A stretch of 63,319 bases of DNA, counting the filler. It is 10 parts of 10 records of this genome, joined end to end, with 100 filler letters (N's around TTAATTAATTAA, not from the genome) between each part and the next. Parts side by side here need not be neighbours in the genome. Positions count along the whole stretch, not along the records: positions 35,589 to 40,453 come from SRR20825010_1118; 9 more parts are not named here. The stretch is one strand, 5' to 3'. Every line of letters begins with the position of its first letter. The first letter of the stretch is position 1. Position numbers and translations under genes: made by a program. The notes under the pieces are model-generated. The model was not told the DNA's origin. It saw only the letters and a list, made by a program, of their open reading frames with translations, and searched no databases. Shown one piece after another: positions 6,322 through 40,452 of this stretch.

Positions 6322-7125
6322 CTAGCGGTCCTGCGGGTGTTCGTCCTCGTCAAGCTTGACCGCAAACGCCGCGGTTTGATCATTGAACGACGGATACCGG
6401 TTCATCACCGCTGGATCGTGACCGGGGACGATGTGGCTGTCCCGGCCGGCCAGTTCCTTCAGCCGCTGGTAGCCCACCACCGTATCGGAAACGCTGTCGC
6501 AGGTCGGAAATACCCTGCCTGTCTGAAAGTGTTCGTAAAGGTGGCTGGCGTCGGATGCCAGCACCACGGGGCCGCGTTTCGTCTCGACCCGCACGCACTG
6601 CAAGCCACGGGAGTGGCCGCCGATGTGATGGACGGTGATCCCCGGAAAAAGCTCGCGATCGCCCAGGCAGAACGAAACTTTGCCGGCATAGATACGCCGA
6701 ACCATCCCGGCGACGTCATCCACCTCATAAGGGTGGTTGAGGAAATGATGACACATGCACGGACCTGTGGCGTAGCGCATCTCGCTTTCCTGCATATAGA
6801 AGCAGGCATTCGGGAACAGGTCGTTATTGCCGGCGTGATCGTAATGCATATGCGTGGTGATCACGTGCTCGACAGCGTTGAATTCCACGCCGACGGCCGA
6901 CAGAGCCGTGTGAACCGGCGTTATCAGTTCACGGCCTCGGCGCATGCCAGACTGCGGATTGAACCCGGTATCGACCACGATGGTGCGGGCCGCATTGCGG
7001 ATCACCCAGACATAGTAATCGATGGGCATCGAGTGGTCGTGGGCATCGCCGCCAATGAAATTCTGCGACGCCGGACGATCATTGCGCGCGTATTTCAATG
7101 CCAGGATTTCGTATCTGTCGGTCAT
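6322..7125 (-). CDS. metallo-beta-lactamase-fold hydrolase, N-acyl-homoserine lactonase (AiiA/AttM-like) family
   Basis: VDTG, THMHYDH (HxHxDH), GHS, DASH, PGHD metal ligands. Confidence 0.88.
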   Translation of the reverse strand: MTDRYEILALKYARNDRPASQNFIGGDAHDHSMPIDYYVWVIRNAARTIVVDTGFNPQSGMRRGRELITPVHTALSAVGVEFNAVEHVITTHMHYDHAGNNDLFPNACFYMQESEMRYATGPCMCHHFLNHPYEVDDVAGMVRRIYAGKVSFCLGDRELFPGITVHHIGGHSRGLQCVRVETKRGPVVLASDASHLYEHFQTGRVFPTCDSVSDTVVGYQRLKELAGRDSHIVPGHDPAVMNRYPSFNDQTAAFAVKLDEDEHPQDR

Positions 7126-7212
7126 GCTGCTCTCGCCTCAACGTTTCATCTTTCCCGTGCCGGAAACGGAAAATGCGCGTCCGGCGATCGCGCGACCGCC
7201 GGACGCTTGTTG

Positions 7213-7365
7213 CTACTTCTTCGGCCACATCGGCGCGGACAGCGCCAGGTCTTCCGGGAACACGGTGACCGGAACGCCGTCCTGCCACTGGATCACCGTA
7301 AGGCTCGCGCCTTCGCGACGGCCCTTGTCGTCGAAGCTCAGCGTGCCGCCGGGATAGTATTCGGC
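7213..7365 (-). CDS. ABC transporter substrate-binding protein (branched-chain amino acid type), C-terminal fragment
   Basis: hand translation AEYYPGGTLSFDDKGRREGASLTVIQWQDGVPVTVFPEDLALSAPMWPKK*; 5' end cut by contig edge. Confidence 0.65.
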   Translation of the reverse strand, partial: AEYYPGGTLSFDDKGRREGASLTVIQWQDGVPVTVFPEDLALSAPMWPKK

Positions 7366-7465
7366 NNNNNNNNNNNNNNNNNNNNNNNNNNNNNNNNNNN
7401 NNNNNNNNNTTAATTAATTAANNNNNNNNNNNNNNNNNNNNNNNNNNNNNNNNNNNNNNNNNNNN
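7366..7465. other. artificial contig spacer (N-run, TTAATTAATTAA, N-run)
   Basis: 100-nt linker with stops in all six frames; same linker at 12601-12700, 28716-28815, 32256-32355, 35489-35588, 40454-40553, 50994-51093, 55125-55224, 59236-59335. Confidence 0.99.
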
Positions 7466-7676
7466 GACGGGAATTCCGTCTTGCCAGCGCTATTTACGGC
7501 GGGAACGCCGCGAGGGTGAGAGGCAAACCGGACAGAAAGGGGCCGTTTATGCCACAGATGGACGAAAGCGCGTGACGGCGATCACCAACGGCGCATTGCC
7601 GGAGCCGTGTCGGCCCGCTTGACGGGCACACGGGCCTGTGGTTCACTTCAATTTTCAATGGAATTATGGGGGCAGA

Positions 7677-8215: not shown

Positions 8216-8539
8216 CTAGCTCCCTTTTCCGGTGTCATTTTCGGCGGCAAGCCGCGCTTCCAGCAAAATCACTGACTGCGCCGCAAGACGGTTGAGCGCC
8301 GCGACATAATCCGGATCGTTGCGGCAGCTTTCCTCCACAATCACCGACGCATCGCGAATATCGCGGAGCGTGGCCGGATGATGAATCGTGCCATCGAGGA
8401 TGAAATTCTTCACGATCCCCATGGTGGTGGCGAGGCCGTCGCAGGTGACAAGCAGCTGATCGCGCGGCGAGAGCTGACCCAGCGGCGCGGCGCAGGCCGC
8501 CAGCCCCAAGAGGAGCGCGGCAATGAGGGCGCGCCTCAT
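8216..8539 (-). CDS. hypothetical lipoprotein (possible spanin-like accessory lysis protein)
   Basis: lipobox MRRALIAALLLGLAA-C; ATGA overlap with the holin-like gene; function inferred from context only. Confidence 0.65.
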   Translation of the reverse strand: MRRALIAALLLGLAACAAPLGQLSPRDQLLVTCDGLATTMGIVKNFILDGTIHHPATLRDIRDASVIVEESCRNDPDYVAALNRLAAQSVILLEARLAAENDTGKGS

Positions 8540-35588: not shown

Positions 35589-36565
35589 GCGATACACAGT
35601 TCGCGGAAGTCGGCACGAAAGGCTAACGAAGTGGGTAGGACATAAGTATCGGACAGATTGCGGTTGGCGAAACTGCGCCCGGCCAGGAGAATGCACGACG
35701 CGGAACGCCACCGCTAGCCTTCGCCATTTGCTCCGCTCCCTGTTCGGAAATTGGGAACCAAGGAACTCCATTTACCGGATCGATGGATCCCAAGCGGGGC
35801 GACGTCCTAGCGAAAATCCAAGATCAGAAAAGGGTGCCTTCTGGCGCCACCGCGGTTCCAGACAATGAATCGAGAAAACAGTAACGACGCCAAACGATTG
35901 AGATCCGAAGTCCTTGAAACCAAACGTTCAAATCCCCATATCTATGGGGTCTATGCAGGGCATCCCCGCCGCACGATGAAGTTCCATAGATCGCCATTCA
36001 GGCATTTACCAGCGAACGCCCCAACTGACCTCCCAGCTAGCCGCTAACCAATCTCTGACCAGTAACGCGAACGTCGATACCCGTCACGTAGACGACGTGC
36101 CTCTTCCTGTCATGGAATGCGAACCATAGCGGACTTGATTACAACGGCTAAGCCCTTATCCCACTGGGGCACTATGAGGTATCCGCAACCGCCCGGAAGA
36201 TCGATGCGCAAGCTCCCCTGGTAGAGAATACCTGGACGCCAGCACTCGGTTGTCGCCGGACTACAAAGGACCCCAAAAAGATCGCGGCACCGTATTGGGA
36301 AATACGACCGCGTGTCGCGTGCCGGTTGGAGTTAAGCCGGACGCGATGATGTGACGGCGCTACGGCGTCTTCGCTAACCGGATGGAGCTGAAAGGCTCGG
36401 GATTCGGAGTTTATGGGCAGGTTACACATCCCACCTGTCCGCCCTGACAAGGCTAAGCTCTCCAACACTGTCGATGCAGTTACGACATAATCCTCCTTTC
36501 AAAGCAAATTACACCTCTTGTCGTGCCATTTCCTTTGCAGGGGGGAAAGTCAATCCTCTGCAGTT
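35589..36565 (+). ncRNA. candidate large structured non-coding RNA (unassigned family, 5' end beyond contig edge)
   Basis: no convincing ORF over about 1 kb; run of hairpins whose GNRA/UNCG loops and G-U pairs work on the + strand; 3' hairpin at 36535-36563. Confidence 0.4.
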
Positions 36566-36624
36566 ATTCAATTCGATACGGTCAACTGACACGATTTAAA
36601 CGACAACGAGCAAAGAAGCGTGGG

Positions 36625-37374
36625 TTAGAAGCAGCGATTCGGTTCCACCCTCTCCCAGCCGAGCAGGTGTTCGTTCTCGTCCAGCCAGGCCTTCCGCTCC
36701 TCCCAGTCCGGCAGGATCTGCCCGACCAGGGTCCAGAACTCCGGCGCGTGATTGCGGTGCTTGAGGTGGCACATCTCGTGGACGACGGCGTATTCGAGCA
36801 CCGGCTTCGGTGCGAAGATCAGGTGCCAGTTAAGATTGATCTGCCTGTCCTGGCCGCAGCTGCCCCACATGTGCTTCTGCTCCTTGACCTGGATGCCGCG
36901 GGGCTTCAGGCGGTTCGGCTCGCCATGCCGGCGGACGAAGGTCTTGGCGTCATCCCGCACGCGGCGCTTCAACCACAGGCGCAGCGCCATCTCGATCAAC
37001 GCGTCGGCAGAGCCAGGCGAGAGCGCTTCCGGCTTGCGGATCTGGAACCCGTTGCGAAAGGCGACCTCGACGAGGTTGCCGTCGAAGGGCTCGATGCTCA
37101 TCCTGGTCATCCGGCCGCGATAGGGGATCTTCGCTCCGGTGACAAACTGGTAGACCCTAGTCTGCGACTTCGCCCGTTCCTGCATGTGCGTGACGGTCTC
37201 AAGGATCCAGGCGCGGCGGCGTTGCAGAACCGCCTCGATCTGGCTCTCGGTCGCCGCATCCGGGACAAGCAGCTCGAATGACTTCGGCGTGACACTGAGG
37301 CTCGCCTTGCTGGCCTTTGAGGAGCGCCGGAGCGTGTATTCGATCTCGCGCTCACCGATCTGGAACACCGGCAT
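36625..37374 (-). CDS. M48-like / YgjP (DUF45) zinc-dependent hydrolase
   Basis: WGSC, YAVVHEMCH (HExxH), NH...FW; starts 2 nt after the hsdR stop. Confidence 0.9.
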   Translation of the reverse strand: MPVFQIGEREIEYTLRRSSKASKASLSVTPKSFELLVPDAATESQIEAVLQRRRAWILETVTHMQERAKSQTRVYQFVTGAKIPYRGRMTRMSIEPFDGNLVEVAFRNGFQIRKPEALSPGSADALIEMALRLWLKRRVRDDAKTFVRRHGEPNRLKPRGIQVKEQKHMWGSCGQDRQINLNWHLIFAPKPVLEYAVVHEMCHLKHRNHAPEFWTLVGQILPDWEERKAWLDENEHLLGWERVEPNRCF

Positions 37375-37376
37375 GG

Positions 37377-40300
37377 CTAGTGCCCCGCGAAGTGCTTGAG
37401 CGCGTAGGCTTCGACCTGGTCCGGGATCTCCCTGAGCTCGGTCAGGCCGGCCAGATGCGCCATGGCGCGGACCTGTTGACGCAGGCTCTTGCGCAGGCCG
37501 TCCTTCTCCCACCATCCGGCCGGTGCGGTCGCCGGGTCGGTGTAGAGGCCCTCCAGGCGGATCGCGAGGTCTTCCCCATCCGCGCCGGCATCAAAGTCGT
37601 TGAGGATCTGCAGGATGCCGTAAGCGCCTGGTGAAAGACCGGCATCGACATGCGCCTCGTCTTCCGCGGCGATATCCCTGGCCAGCTCCTCGGCCGCCCT
37701 TAGCTTGTCCGACCAGCTCAGCTGCGCGCTTTCGAGCTTCTCCAGCAGCTGGCGCAGGCGCTCGGAGAACTTGCCGTATTGGTGCGGGCTGGCGTCGATG
37801 CGTTCGCTGACGGTCTTCCTCAGCTCCGTCGTCTTGCGGATCGCGGCCGTCATCAGGTCTTCCTCGGACTTGCCGTCGGTGTCGAAGTCCTCCCAGAAAT
37901 CCGGATCGGTGATGTGACGGAGCTTGACCGTGACGCTAAGCCCCGTCGCCTCCAGGTGCTGGTTCAGCATCTCGCGGATCTTCTCGCTGTAGTTCATCTG
38001 GTCGAAGGCCTGGCGCTTCTCGAAATGCTGGGTGCCGTAGAGCAGGAAGGTCGCCACCCATTTCAGGTCTGCCGTGAACTCCAGCACGCTCGGATCCGGG
38101 CTCAGCGTCTCGTAGAGCGCGATGAAGCTGCGCGCCCGCGCCTTGAACTCGAACCACTTGTCCTCGCTGCCCAGGGCCTTGATGAAGGCGTCGAACTCCC
38201 CCTTCAGACCGTCCTTGTCGGACGCCTTGCGCTTGACCGGCTTCAGCATCACGGTCACCGCGGCATGGGCCGTGCGCAGCTGGTTTCTGAGATCGTCGAG
38301 GTCGCGCATGGCGTTCTTCACGTCATCAGCGCGGTAGCTGGCAAGCGCCTCCTCCAGGTTCGCCGAGACGCCGATGTAATCCACGATGAGACCGTTGCGC
38401 TTCTTCGGGTCGGAGACGCGGTTGGTGCGGGCAATCGCCTGCAGCAGGCCGTGCTCCTTCAGCGGCTTGTCGAGATACATCACGCTTTCGATCGGGCAGT
38501 CGAAGCCGGTGAGCAGCTTGTCGCAGACGATAAGAAACTGCGGATCCTCGCCCTTGCGCCCGAATGCCTGCTTCACCTGTTTCTCGGCTTCGGCGTCGAC
38601 ATAATGCGCCTTCAGCCCGTTGCGGATCGCCTGCCTGTGCGCGTCCTCGCTCGGCTTGCCGTCTTCCTGGTTGATCGAATAGACGCAGGCCGACATGGCG
38701 TCGGCACGCGCCAGCGCCGCCGCGGCGTCCAGGCCCCCGGCTTGCAGATCCTCGGCGATCGCGCGTGTCAGCGCCTGCTTGTAGAGGATCACCGCCTCGC
38801 GATCGATGGCGACGATCTGCGCCTTGAAACCGTCCGGCTGCGCATAGGCCTTGAAATGGGTCCAGATGTCGTAGGCGATCAGCTCGATCCGTCTCGGATG
38901 CTTGACCAGGTCCTCGATCCGCACCCCGCGCTTCTTGATCTCGTTGAGCTTGTCGTCGTCCAGTTCGGCAAACCAGGTGTCGAACAGGATATCGATCTTC
39001 GCCTCGTCGATGTGCCAGTCGGTCTTGCGGCCGGTGTAATAGATCGGCACCGTCGCGCCGTCGGCCACCGCGTCATCGATGCCGTATTTGTCGAGATAGC
39101 TCTCGCCGACTACGCCGAAATTGGCATAGGTGTCCTTGTCGTCCTTCTTTACCGGCGTGCCGGTAAAGCCGAAGAAGCGGGCATCGGGCAAGGTCGCGCG
39201 CAGATAGGCGCCGAGATCCTTTTCCTGGGTGCGATGCGCCTCGTCCACCATGACGATCCAGTTCCCGGAGTTCTCGATTGCCTCCTTCGACCCCTGGAAC
39301 TTGAAGATGGTCGACAGCGCCGTGTGCCCGTCCTTGCCGCTGCGGATCAGGGCATGCAGGTCCTTGATGCTGTCGATCGTCGTCGGGTTGGGCAATCCGC
39401 AGGCGACAAACGTGCCGCTGATCTGCGTGTGCAGGTCGACGCGGTCGGTCAACACCAGGATGTTCGGGTTGGTCAGCGCCTCGGATTGTATCGTCCGGTG
39501 CGTCTTCAGCTTCAGCGCGGCAAACACCATGGTCAGCGACTTGCCACTGCCCTGGGTGTGCCAGATCAGCCCCTGGCGGTGCTTGCCCTCCAGCACGCGC
39601 TCGACGATGCGGTTGACGGCGCGGAACTGCTGGTAGCGGCAGATCTTCTTGACCGTGCCGCTCTCGGTCTTCTCGAACACCACGTAATGGGCGATGAGAT
39701 CGAGCAGCCGGCCCGGCTCCAGCAGGCACCAGAGCCCCTTGGCCAGGCTGTCGGTGAAGTCGGCCTCGCTCTTCGGCCAGGGGTCGCGCCATTCGCCGAA
39801 ATATTTGGAACTGGCGCCGGTGGCGCCATAAAGCACCAGCGCCCCGTCGGTGACGATGTTGAAGAGGTTGGAGAAGAACAGGCGCGGAATGTCGCGCTCA
39901 TACTGCCTTATCTGCTCGAAGGCCTCGCCGGTCTTGTCCTTGATGTTGAGCGGGCTCTTGGCCTCGATCACCACCAGCGGAATGCCGTTGACATAGACCA
40001 CCAGATCCGGCCGGCGCGTATTCTCCGCCTTCACGCGCAACTGATTGGTCACGCTGAACCGGTTGTTGCCGGGGTCGAGAAAATCGATCACCCGTAGCGT
40101 CTGCCGCGTGTCCTGGCCGGAGACCTTGCGACTGTAGTCGCCGCGCAGCACCTTCAGCCAGGTCTCGTTGTCGCTGATCGCGGCCAGCTCGCCATAGGCA
40201 GCCTCGGCGGACGGCCGATCGATCCCGTTGATCCGCATCAGCGCCTCGATCAGGTGCGGGCGGAACAGAACCTGGTTCTCGCCCTCCCGCAAACCTGCAT

Positions 40301-40391
40301 GCTCGGCCATCGGCACGAAGCCGTAGCCCATTGCTTGCAGGTGCTCGATGGTCGGTCGCTCGGCGAAATGCCACTCGGGGCCTTGGCTCAT
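37377..40391 (-). CDS. hsdR: type I restriction endonuclease subunit R
   Basis: RPDLVVYVNGIPLVVIEAK nuclease motif, TQGSGKS, DEAHR, FTGTP, LLTGFD, QAIARTNR. Confidence 0.96.
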   Translation of the reverse strand: MSQGPEWHFAERPTIEHLQAMGYGFVPMAEHAGLREGENQVLFRPHLIEALMRINGIDRPSAEAAYGELAAISDNETWLKVLRGDYSRKVSGQDTRQTLRVIDFLDPGNNRFSVTNQLRVKAENTRRPDLVVYVNGIPLVVIEAKSPLNIKDKTGEAFEQIRQYERDIPRLFFSNLFNIVTDGALVLYGATGASSKYFGEWRDPWPKSEADFTDSLAKGLWCLLEPGRLLDLIAHYVVFEKTESGTVKKICRYQQFRAVNRIVERVLEGKHRQGLIWHTQGSGKSLTMVFAALKLKTHRTIQSEALTNPNILVLTDRVDLHTQISGTFVACGLPNPTTIDSIKDLHALIRSGKDGHTALSTIFKFQGSKEAIENSGNWIVMVDEAHRTQEKDLGAYLRATLPDARFFGFTGTPVKKDDKDTYANFGVVGESYLDKYGIDDAVADGATVPIYYTGRKTDWHIDEAKIDILFDTWFAELDDDKLNEIKKRGVRIEDLVKHPRRIELIAYDIWTHFKAYAQPDGFKAQIVAIDREAVILYKQALTRAIAEDLQAGGLDAAAALARADAMSACVYSINQEDGKPSEDAHRQAIRNGLKAHYVDAEAEKQVKQAFGRKGEDPQFLIVCDKLLTGFDCPIESVMYLDKPLKEHGLLQAIARTNRVSDPKKRNGLIVDYIGVSANLEEALASYRADDVKNAMRDLDDLRNQLRTAHAAVTVMLKPVKRKASDKDGLKGEFDAFIKALGSEDKWFEFKARARSFIALYETLSPDPSVLEFTADLKWVATFLLYGTQHFEKRQAFDQMNYSEKIREMLNQHLEATGLSVTVKLRHITDPDFWEDFDTDGKSEEDLMTAAIRKTTELRKTVSERIDASPHQYGKFSERLRQLLEKLESAQLSWSDKLRAAEELARDIAAEDEAHVDAGLSPGAYGILQILNDFDAGADGEDLAIRLEGLYTDPATAPAGWWEKDGLRKSLRQQVRAMAHLAGLTELREIPDQVEAYALKHFAGH

Positions 40392-40398
40392 GGTGCGA

Positions 40399-40452
40399 TC
40401 ACTCCGCTGCCATGGGCACGACGTCCGGCACACGCTTGCGGCCTGTGAAAAG
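40399..40452 (-). CDS. hsdS: probable type I R-M specificity subunit, last 17 codons
   Basis: hand translation LFTGRKRVPDVVPMAAE*, like HsdS C-termini (LLTG..RV); stop 7 nt before hsdR. Confidence 0.6.
   Translation of the reverse strand, partial: LFTGRKRVPDVVPMAAE

Follow-up and report, generated by a model that had tools for sequence, protein, structure and literature searches.

A large structured non-coding RNA in mobile-element contexts of Rhizobiales, absent from Rfam

We analyzed a stretch of DNA of 63,319 nucleotides (the window), a chain of contigs joined by N spacers. Near the start of one 4,865-base contig (35589-40453) lies what is very probably the gene for an uncatalogued large structured non-coding RNA, apparently with its own promoter, carried as accessory cargo by mobile DNA of Rhizobiales and proposed to act in trans (35949-36590 on the + strand, ends approximate). 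The RNA has a supported fold, belongs to the + strand, does not encode a protein, is absent from Rfam and sits in mobile-element contexts. Its length is about 640 bases (~0.64 kb), and falls short of the ~1 kb given by the first-pass annotation, which had proposed a structured RNA at this place; the conserved core measures about 530 nt (~0.53 kb), extended in the lineage of the window by a 5′ hairpin and a linker of repeats. The features of the locus are collected in Table 1.

Table 1. Features of the RNA locus, in coordinates of the window
Feature	Position	Strand	Remarks
3′ end of membrane-like ORF	35589-35645	+	Last 18 codons and TAA stop of a 221-aa ORF; outside the RNA
Spacer	35646-35912		No excess folding (z near 0); ~90-nt motif inside 35689-35857
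Putative sigma-70-type promoter	35913-35942	+	-35 CTTGAA/TTGAAA, 17-nt spacer, -10 CCATAT/CATATC; predicted
RNA 5′ hairpin	35949-35991	+	Stem GTCTATG/CATAGAT in the window; alignment judged by eye
Variable linker	35992-36067	+	Rich in CGAAC-like repeats; alignment A1
5′ domain of conserved core	36068-36261	+	10 helices, 51 pairs; covariance models R1 and R2
Central part	36262-36376	+	Conserved single-stranded A-rich joint and hairpins 36283-36312, 36315-36346 and 36356-36369 (UNCG loop)
3′ junction domain	36377-36463	+	Hairpins 36385-36398 and 36415-36440, strongly conserved unpaired stretches
3′ part	36464-36590	+	Long hairpin, conserved G-run/AAAGUC motif, terminal hairpin; 3′ end predicted
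YgjP-like metal-dependent hydrolase gene	36625-37515	-	Pfam PF01863, E 2e-52; last gene of the convergent R-M operon
hsdR, type I restriction subunit	37377-40433	-	Pfam HSDR_N, SWI2_SNF2, T1R_D3-like

Homologues and boundaries of the RNA

With the YgjP-like protein as bait, 47 loci were collected from genome contigs, two of which align with the whole non-coding stretch: L001, a metagenome-assembled genome (MAG), at 93% and L002, Hoeflea alexandrii DSM 16655, at 85%. In L002, the RNA lies at about 6905-7580, on the minus strand of the locus. Among 400 genomes from the family to which L002 belongs, a search at the DNA level recovered 36069-36499 at 75-76% identity in G540, G370 and, partly, G446, the flanks of which are unrelated to those of the window. 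A covariance model of the 5′ domain (R1) detected a diverged copy in Martelella radicis (L016) and, in a 150-genome family sample whose centre genome (G216) was not counted, new copies in G276 and G321. A further match to R1 in that sample, in G315 (28 bits), was discarded as a false positive, as it lies antisense inside a metallophosphoesterase ORF and the motifs are absent; L038 gave a weak model match of 17.7 bits. The rebuilt model, R2, found G733, G725 and G735 in a 150-genome order sample and had no match in a 150-genome class sample. Blastn with the G321 variant contributed G400, G506 and a second copy in G321, and a motif scan of viral contigs returned 8 stretches, 5 of which R2 confirmed. 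The homologues found by model, by blastn and on viral contigs also carry the 3′ half, with the order of motifs unchanged. In all, 18 distinct homologous sequences were obtained, at one or two copies per genome; they come from Hoeflea, Martelella and further genomes of Rhizobiales as well as from metagenomes and viral contigs.

The family is rare, with new matches in 3 of 150 genomes at the level of the family (one of them the false positive), 3 of 150 at that of the order and 0 of 150 at that of the class; these model searches scored about 17 first-look candidates per genome, so that their sensitivity is uncertain. Blastn with three RNA variants found no match in 72,556 plasmids, and blastn with one variant found none in 50,697 phage records. 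A pattern of the window type returned nothing from the viral contigs and only 3 close relatives from metagenomes. The RNA was likewise missing from the genome nearest to the whole window, from 61 relatives of that genome and from 191 genomes of its genus, all searched at the DNA level. That nearest genome shares 21% of the words of the window, and the relatives of the contig are Hoeflea and the MAG; either the contig (35589-40453) is mobile DNA or the assembly mixes organisms.

The gene layout agrees with the proposal that a + strand RNA converges on a type I R-M/YgjP (hsdR-ygjP) operon, and base composition agrees with the claim that the stretch is less G+C-rich than this operon (0.50-0.59 over 35589-36624 versus 0.62-0.67). 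The statement that the stretch holds no credible protein stands insofar as it contains no conserved ORF and no Pfam match above the cut-off, but a gene reaches 57 bases into it with its 3′ end. This gene, a 221-aa ORF, is complete in L001:7866-8531(-) and L002:7867-8532(-), and the window keeps its frame and stop; it has a weak NnrS-like Pfam match, below the cut-off, and occurs in L062 at 88% identity (tblastn). Since 35589-35645 is coding, the 5′ end of any RNA does not lie beyond the contig edge, where it had been supposed to be: L001 and L002 continue past this edge, the protein gene stops at 35645, and a promoter-like site follows at 35913-35942.

Promoter-like sites lie upstream on the + strand in every lineage that was read. 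Before the 5′ hairpin, the spacing of the -35 and -10 elements is TTGAGC-N17-TATCAT in G540 and TTGAAG-N17-TATTAT in G370, and in other lineages a TGCTATAAT-like -10 element directly precedes the core. A sigma-70-type promoter of its own appears to drive transcription of the RNA. Consensus scans of the window stretch returned neither a promoter nor a terminator-like site, so we infer both the start, near 35949, and the end, near 36590. In a sediment metatranscriptome (X17), two 151-nt contigs from an L001-like strain fall on 36043-36191 and 36249-36351, with nothing on the rest of 35589-37417, the flanking gene and the spacer being silent. These contigs are a hint of expression: they are two in number, at a depth of about 3, strandless and from a relative, and could stem from DNA carry-over. 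RNA runs X19 and X20 gave no read; as polyA libraries, they are no test of expression.

A covarying fold on the + strand

Between 36270 and 36570, folding exceeded that of dinucleotide shuffles on the + strand (z -2.57) and not appreciably on the - strand (z -0.44), while 150-nt windows over 35589-36240 gave z values near 0 or positive on either strand. Excess folding is therefore limited to the 3′ third and to the + strand; the comparison with shuffled sequence that the first-pass annotation had suggested came out in its favor on the + strand of 36270-36570 and against it over 35589-36240. As the folding of the single sequence is modest and local, it would not by itself carry the claim of a structured RNA.

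The comparison of homologues carries this claim. We counted as double changes those in which both sides of a pair are altered and pairing is kept, and partners slid by 1-3 columns served as a control. In alignment A2 (6 sequences), RNAalifold gave 128 pairs in 24 helices, with double changes in 36 of the 128 pairs (3-7 when slid) and 95.8% of cells paired (37-41% when slid). For the 5′ domain, A6 (18 distinct sequences) has double changes in 40 of 51 pairs versus 13-21 for slid partners, and 89.4% of cells paired versus 33-46%. A4 and A6 were fitted to the covariance model, and pairing is therefore favored in those two alignments; A5, a plain MAFFT alignment of 11 sequences, has double changes in 25 of the 42 pairs of the 3′ half (6-12 when slid) and 90% of cells paired. 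The central part comprises helices 12-16 of A2 (helices 1-6 of A5), and helix 16 of A2 has double changes in 8 of its 10 pairs; the 3′ junction domain comprises helices 17-21 of A2, and A5 helices 8 and 9 have double changes in 8 of 11 pairs.

The first-pass annotation had named eight hairpins, all of which exist in the sequence where it had placed them, and those within 36283-36440 are present in the minimum free energy fold. Compensatory changes in relatives keep five of them, namely the hairpins listed in Table 1 for the central part and the 3′ junction domain (36283-36312 through 36415-36440). The third pair of the 36415-36440 hairpin, for example, is G-U, A-U, U-G or U-A depending on the lineage, and the UNCG-capped hairpin at 36356-36369 has a wholly different stem under a UUCG loop in G540 and G370. 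A sixth, at 35941-35990, draws its support only from our reading of the sequences: the corresponding stem of G540 and G370 is another one (GTCGTG or GTTGTG with CACGAC, aligned by eye), and pairing of 35949-35955 with 35985-35991 is the likelier homologous register in the window. The remaining two did not find support in the comparison. These are the pairing of 36481-36487 with 36519-36525 and the "final hairpin" at 36535-36563, instead of which the relatives keep a long hairpin (36491-36504/36533-36546) and a terminal one (36561-36565/36584-36588). In the long hairpin, a C/U-rich run set against a G run closes the stem (A2 helix 23); A5 helix 10 has 89.6% of its cells paired, with changes mostly from C-G to U-G. 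Covariation in the terminal hairpin was read by eye.

Special tetraloops and G-U pairs had been put forward as marks of the + strand. The GNRA loop of the first hairpin (36283-36312; GGGA/GAGA) and the UNCG loop of the 36356-36369 hairpin (UACG/UUCG) are indeed kept, but the GAAA loop at 36390-36393 is not. G-U cells number 83 and A-C cells 9, so that 95.8% of cells pair on the + strand versus 85.9% on the - strand, an excess in keeping with the + strand only. We found no codon periodicity in the substitutions, which are spread evenly over the three phases (p 0.69-0.99), and no frame preference in tblastx, where all frames score alike; nor did the stretch yield a protein-coding remnant, with no frame-specific conservation and no Pfam match above the cut-off for its longest ORFs. 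Covariation, the G-U excess and the flat substitution phases bear out the claim of a large selected RNA fold on the + strand.

Outside the helices, 85 of the 191 ungapped unpaired columns of A2 are invariant. A long-range pairing between the GGGAU stretch and the 3′ tail (A5 helix 7) shows changes on a single side and is tentative. An RNase P-like reading of the G-run/AAAGUC motif was dropped, with no RNase P match in Rfam and no P4-type partner by eye, and so was the reading of UAUGG/CUAAG as an 11-nt tetraloop receptor, as these strands form an ordinary covarying helix.

Islands and phage-like elements around the RNA

A partner protein had been suspected just upstream of the RNA. The 5′ neighbors differ between lineages, however, and include a membrane protein, a DUF3102 protein, an integrase, a tape-measure-like protein and an aldehyde dehydrogenase. 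The suggestion to look for a reverse transcriptase or nuclease was followed as well, and in no locus examined does one of the retron, group II or OMEGA type adjoin the RNA: in 10 loci, flanking ORFs scanned with Pfam, PHROG and PADLOC included no reverse transcriptase, and the flanks examined contain no IscB/IsrB/TnpB, IS110-type or Cas gene.

In G735, the RNA belongs to an island with the order tRNA-Ser, integrase, RNA, small ORFs and type I R-M operon. A tyrosine integrase is directly upstream of the RNA in three genomes (G735, G276 and G725) and lies within about 2-2.2 kb of it in G446 and Martelella. These five RNA-linked integrases form one clade (52-71% identity), which is present in 36 of 400 genomes. 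Among 30 integrase loci, one has the RNA within 1.5 kb, the G446 copy falls just outside its locus, and 28 lack it within that distance. Because the clade mostly occurs without the RNA, we regard the RNA as cargo and not as part of the island core; the idea of a fixed partner of this integrase clade was ruled out by the single locus in 30 with the RNA within 1.5 kb. Two islands with an integrase of the same clade, one of them carrying the RNA, encode NYN and OST-HTH/LOTUS proteins (L067:4314-5066; L069:10592-11392).

In six non-identical phage-like elements, with TerL identity down to 39%, the RNA directly follows genes for TerS, TerL and a tape-measure-like protein. The RNA-bearing elements are flanked by tRNA genes, and the cargo beside the RNA in the phage-like elements has weak, domain-level PADLOC matches only. 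One such module (L068:2857-9839, with homologues in L116-L120) encodes an HNH endonuclease, a tail terminator, TerS, TerL and a tape-measure-like protein of 790-900 aa, and contains no portal or capsid gene in the stretch read. Modules of this type lie near tRNA-Gln in G321 and G400 and may be satellites or defective prophages.

R-M genes lie within 5 kb of the RNA in 8 of 15 non-redundant loci, a count biased by the use of an R-M gene to find two of the lineages, that of the window and Martelella. Directly adjacent to the 3′ end of the RNA are convergent hsdR genes of three unrelated types.

Several repeats and motifs accompany the RNA. A conserved non-coding motif of ~90 nt precedes the putative promoter (35689-35857) and also occurs at L003:8656-8814 and L054:~1500-1563, where the surroundings differ; the L003 copy is closely followed by a 404-aa ORF. 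Between the 5′ hairpin and the core are CGAAC-rich, iteron-like repeats of variable length (35992-36067; L058:~8340-8440 on the - strand; L057:1590-1680), and the linker of G370 includes about 8 repeats of a 9-nt unit. Downstream of the RNA, most lineages, the window not among them, have GA-rich runs of very short G+C hairpins with a GAA loop, the stems of which covary between genomes (L068:10480-10540, L073, L016, L067, L059 and L116-L118). Short GAA-loop G+C hairpins are unusually stable DNA mini-hairpins found near phage origins.

Comparison with known RNAs and possible roles

The comparison with Rfam that had been recommended confirmed that the RNA is absent from release 15, with 0 matches at the gathering score in the whole window and matches to tRNAs only in 8 homologous loci. 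At E values up to 10 for the window stretch or 5 for the 8 loci, we obtained scattered, unrelated low matches, none of them recurrent at the RNA. The scan covered models of group II introns, GOLLD, ROOL, HEARO, retron-type RNAs, RNase P and tmRNA, none of which matched, and ARAGORN detected no tRNA or tmRNA in the window and only ordinary tRNAs away from the RNA in the homologous loci. Three generic traits of structured non-coding RNAs are present: helices kept by compensatory changes in excess of controls, G-U pairs biased to one strand and the lack of a coding signal. The RNA constitutes a new family, outside Rfam 15. We found no description of it in the literature consulted; the 10,006 candidate RNAs of PMC10690425 could include a fragment of it.

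ROOL and GOLLD are "ornate" large RNAs of prophages, addressed by cryo-EM (PMC12286853). Like them, our RNA exceeds 500 nt, has many conserved helices and junction nucleotides, resides on prophages or mobile DNA with tRNA genes nearby, lacks a conserved partner protein and probably forms its own transcription unit. It differs from them in having no match in Rfam 15 and in its frequent adjacency to R-M genes and a tyrosine-integrase clade, and the likeness is one of descriptive class and not of homology, with no detectable sequence or structure in common. The hosts of ROOL and GOLLD are Firmicutes and relatives, a phylum other than that of the Rhizobiales here. HEARO/OMEGA RNAs, IS110 bridge RNAs and TnpB reRNAs are likewise large structured RNAs on mobile DNA, with a recombination or nuclease gene of the element beside them; in three genomes, our RNA has an integrase directly upstream. 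In contrast to these systems, the flanks contain no IscB/IsrB/TnpB/IS110-type gene, there is no HEARO match in Rfam, and the recombinase beside the RNA is a tyrosine integrase mostly found without it. With retron msr-msd RNAs and group II introns it shares a structured RNA in defense-island settings, but neither a reverse transcriptase ORF in the examined flanks nor an Rfam match.

Other element-encoded RNAs serve the DNA transactions of the element itself, such as the packaging RNA of phi29 (pRNA) and the replication primer RNA II of ColE1. The position after TerS-TerL in six phage-like elements recalls phi29 pRNA; our RNA, however, is several times larger and also occurs in islands without packaging genes, and it differs from ColE1 RNA II in that no origin or initiator was identified. 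The TwoAYGGAY RNA (10.64898/2026.09.22.753630) is short, present in tens of copies per genome and matched by RF01731. It resembles our RNA in having short upstream and downstream repeats and a suspected link to mobile elements, and differs from it in that ours has ~530 nt, one or two copies per genome and no RF01731 match at E values up to 5-10.

Our best guess, drawn from these comparisons, is a trans-acting "ornate" RNA that serves the mobile element. The RNA is carried as an accessory gene by tRNA-integrated islands with one tyrosine-integrase clade and by phage-like elements, often bordering variable cargo such as type I R-M, and would act in trans as a folded RNA or as the scaffold of an RNP, in the manner of ROOL and GOLLD. 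The benefit to the element may lie in its maintenance or in conflict with phages or host restriction, and would not consist in antisense regulation of hsdR. A more ambitious version, which we consider conceivable rather than probable, sees in it a new RNA machine by which Rhizobiales mobile elements engage in conflict with restriction systems and phages, of the elaborateness of ROOL and GOLLD and unrelated to them; such a machine could block or time type I restriction, could be an RNA-only or RNP component of defense or packaging, or could be a new ribozyme.

The position of the RNA next to R-M genes raises the question of a role in cis, as an antisense or convergent transcript that would tune hsdR-ygjP by read-through into the 3′ end of the operon and, for example, delay restriction in a new host. 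The RNA ends ~25-220 nt from the convergent R-M stop in the window lineage, in G540/G370 and in G446, no terminator-like site separates it from the R-M gene, and three different hsdR types occupy the convergent position. However, an abutting convergent R-M gene is missing in G276, G735, G733, Martelella and all six phage-like elements, the operon lies outside the conserved part, and such a role needs neither 24 conserved helices nor long invariant unpaired stretches. With most lineages lacking a convergent gene, a purely antisense role toward hsdR is very unlikely. We give, if anything, still less credence to a fold that works as single-stranded DNA (an origin, an initiation or priming signal, or a single-strand promoter) or to a primer akin to ColE1 RNA II. 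The constant presence on mobile DNA, the iteron-like short repeats upstream and, in many lineages, the downstream runs of short GAA-loop G+C hairpins would suit this explanation, but the excess of G-U over A-C cells (83 versus 9) and the conservation of UNCG and GNRA loops, which are RNA-type tetraloops, disfavor a role at the DNA level. Promoter-like sites directly upstream, coverage in a metatranscriptome, the lack of a consistently adjacent replication initiator gene and the lack of a match in the plasmid collection also speak against it.

A new ribozyme, or a guide-type RNA working with an element protein (the integrase clade, the tape-measure-like protein or type I R-M), be it as an anti-restriction decoy or as a defense RNA, seems unlikely to us, without being far-fetched. 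The high number of invariant unpaired positions that accompany the covarying helices (85 of 191 columns in A2) and the recurrence next to R-M genes, the integrase clade and the TerL/tape-measure-like module argue for it; against it, the lineages share no adjacent protein family common to all of them, most loci of the integrase clade are devoid of the RNA, and the examined flanks have no reverse transcriptase, IscB/IsrB/TnpB-like or Cas gene. It is hardly credible that the stretch has no function and represents either a decayed gene or palindromes that arose by chance in island DNA. A G+C content below that of the neighbors, the lack of a homologue in the 191 genomes from the genus closest to the whole window and the first 650 bases without excess folding are compatible with such an origin, whereas conservation at 75% identity between unrelated flanks, compensatory changes far above controls and the lack of codon periodicity and of a tblastx frame preference contradict it; this explanation is refuted for 36068-36590 and is a possible one for 35646-35912.

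To our knowledge, bacterial RNAs this large and conserved are few (rRNA, RNase P, tmRNA, group I and II introns, OLE, ROOL, GOLLD, raiA and HEARO), and each of them acts as a catalyst or a guide or forms an unusual assembly. Here, a well-supported fold, a culturable host (Hoeflea alexandrii DSM 16655, whose copy is 85% identical to that of the window) and a sharply defined setting, right after phage packaging/tail genes or an island integrase and bordering R-M cargo, make the role of the RNA directly testable. Should the RNA affect restriction, phage resistance or element transfer, it would be an RNA player in an almost protein-only field; whatever its role proves to be, it adds a family to Rfam and lends itself to structural work.

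A strain represented in run X2, compared with the window over 35589-37600, differs from it at ~4% of ygjP positions and, among the differences listed, at 3 positions in the RNA and 4 in the spacer, a pattern that could reflect a recombination mosaic or purifying selection.
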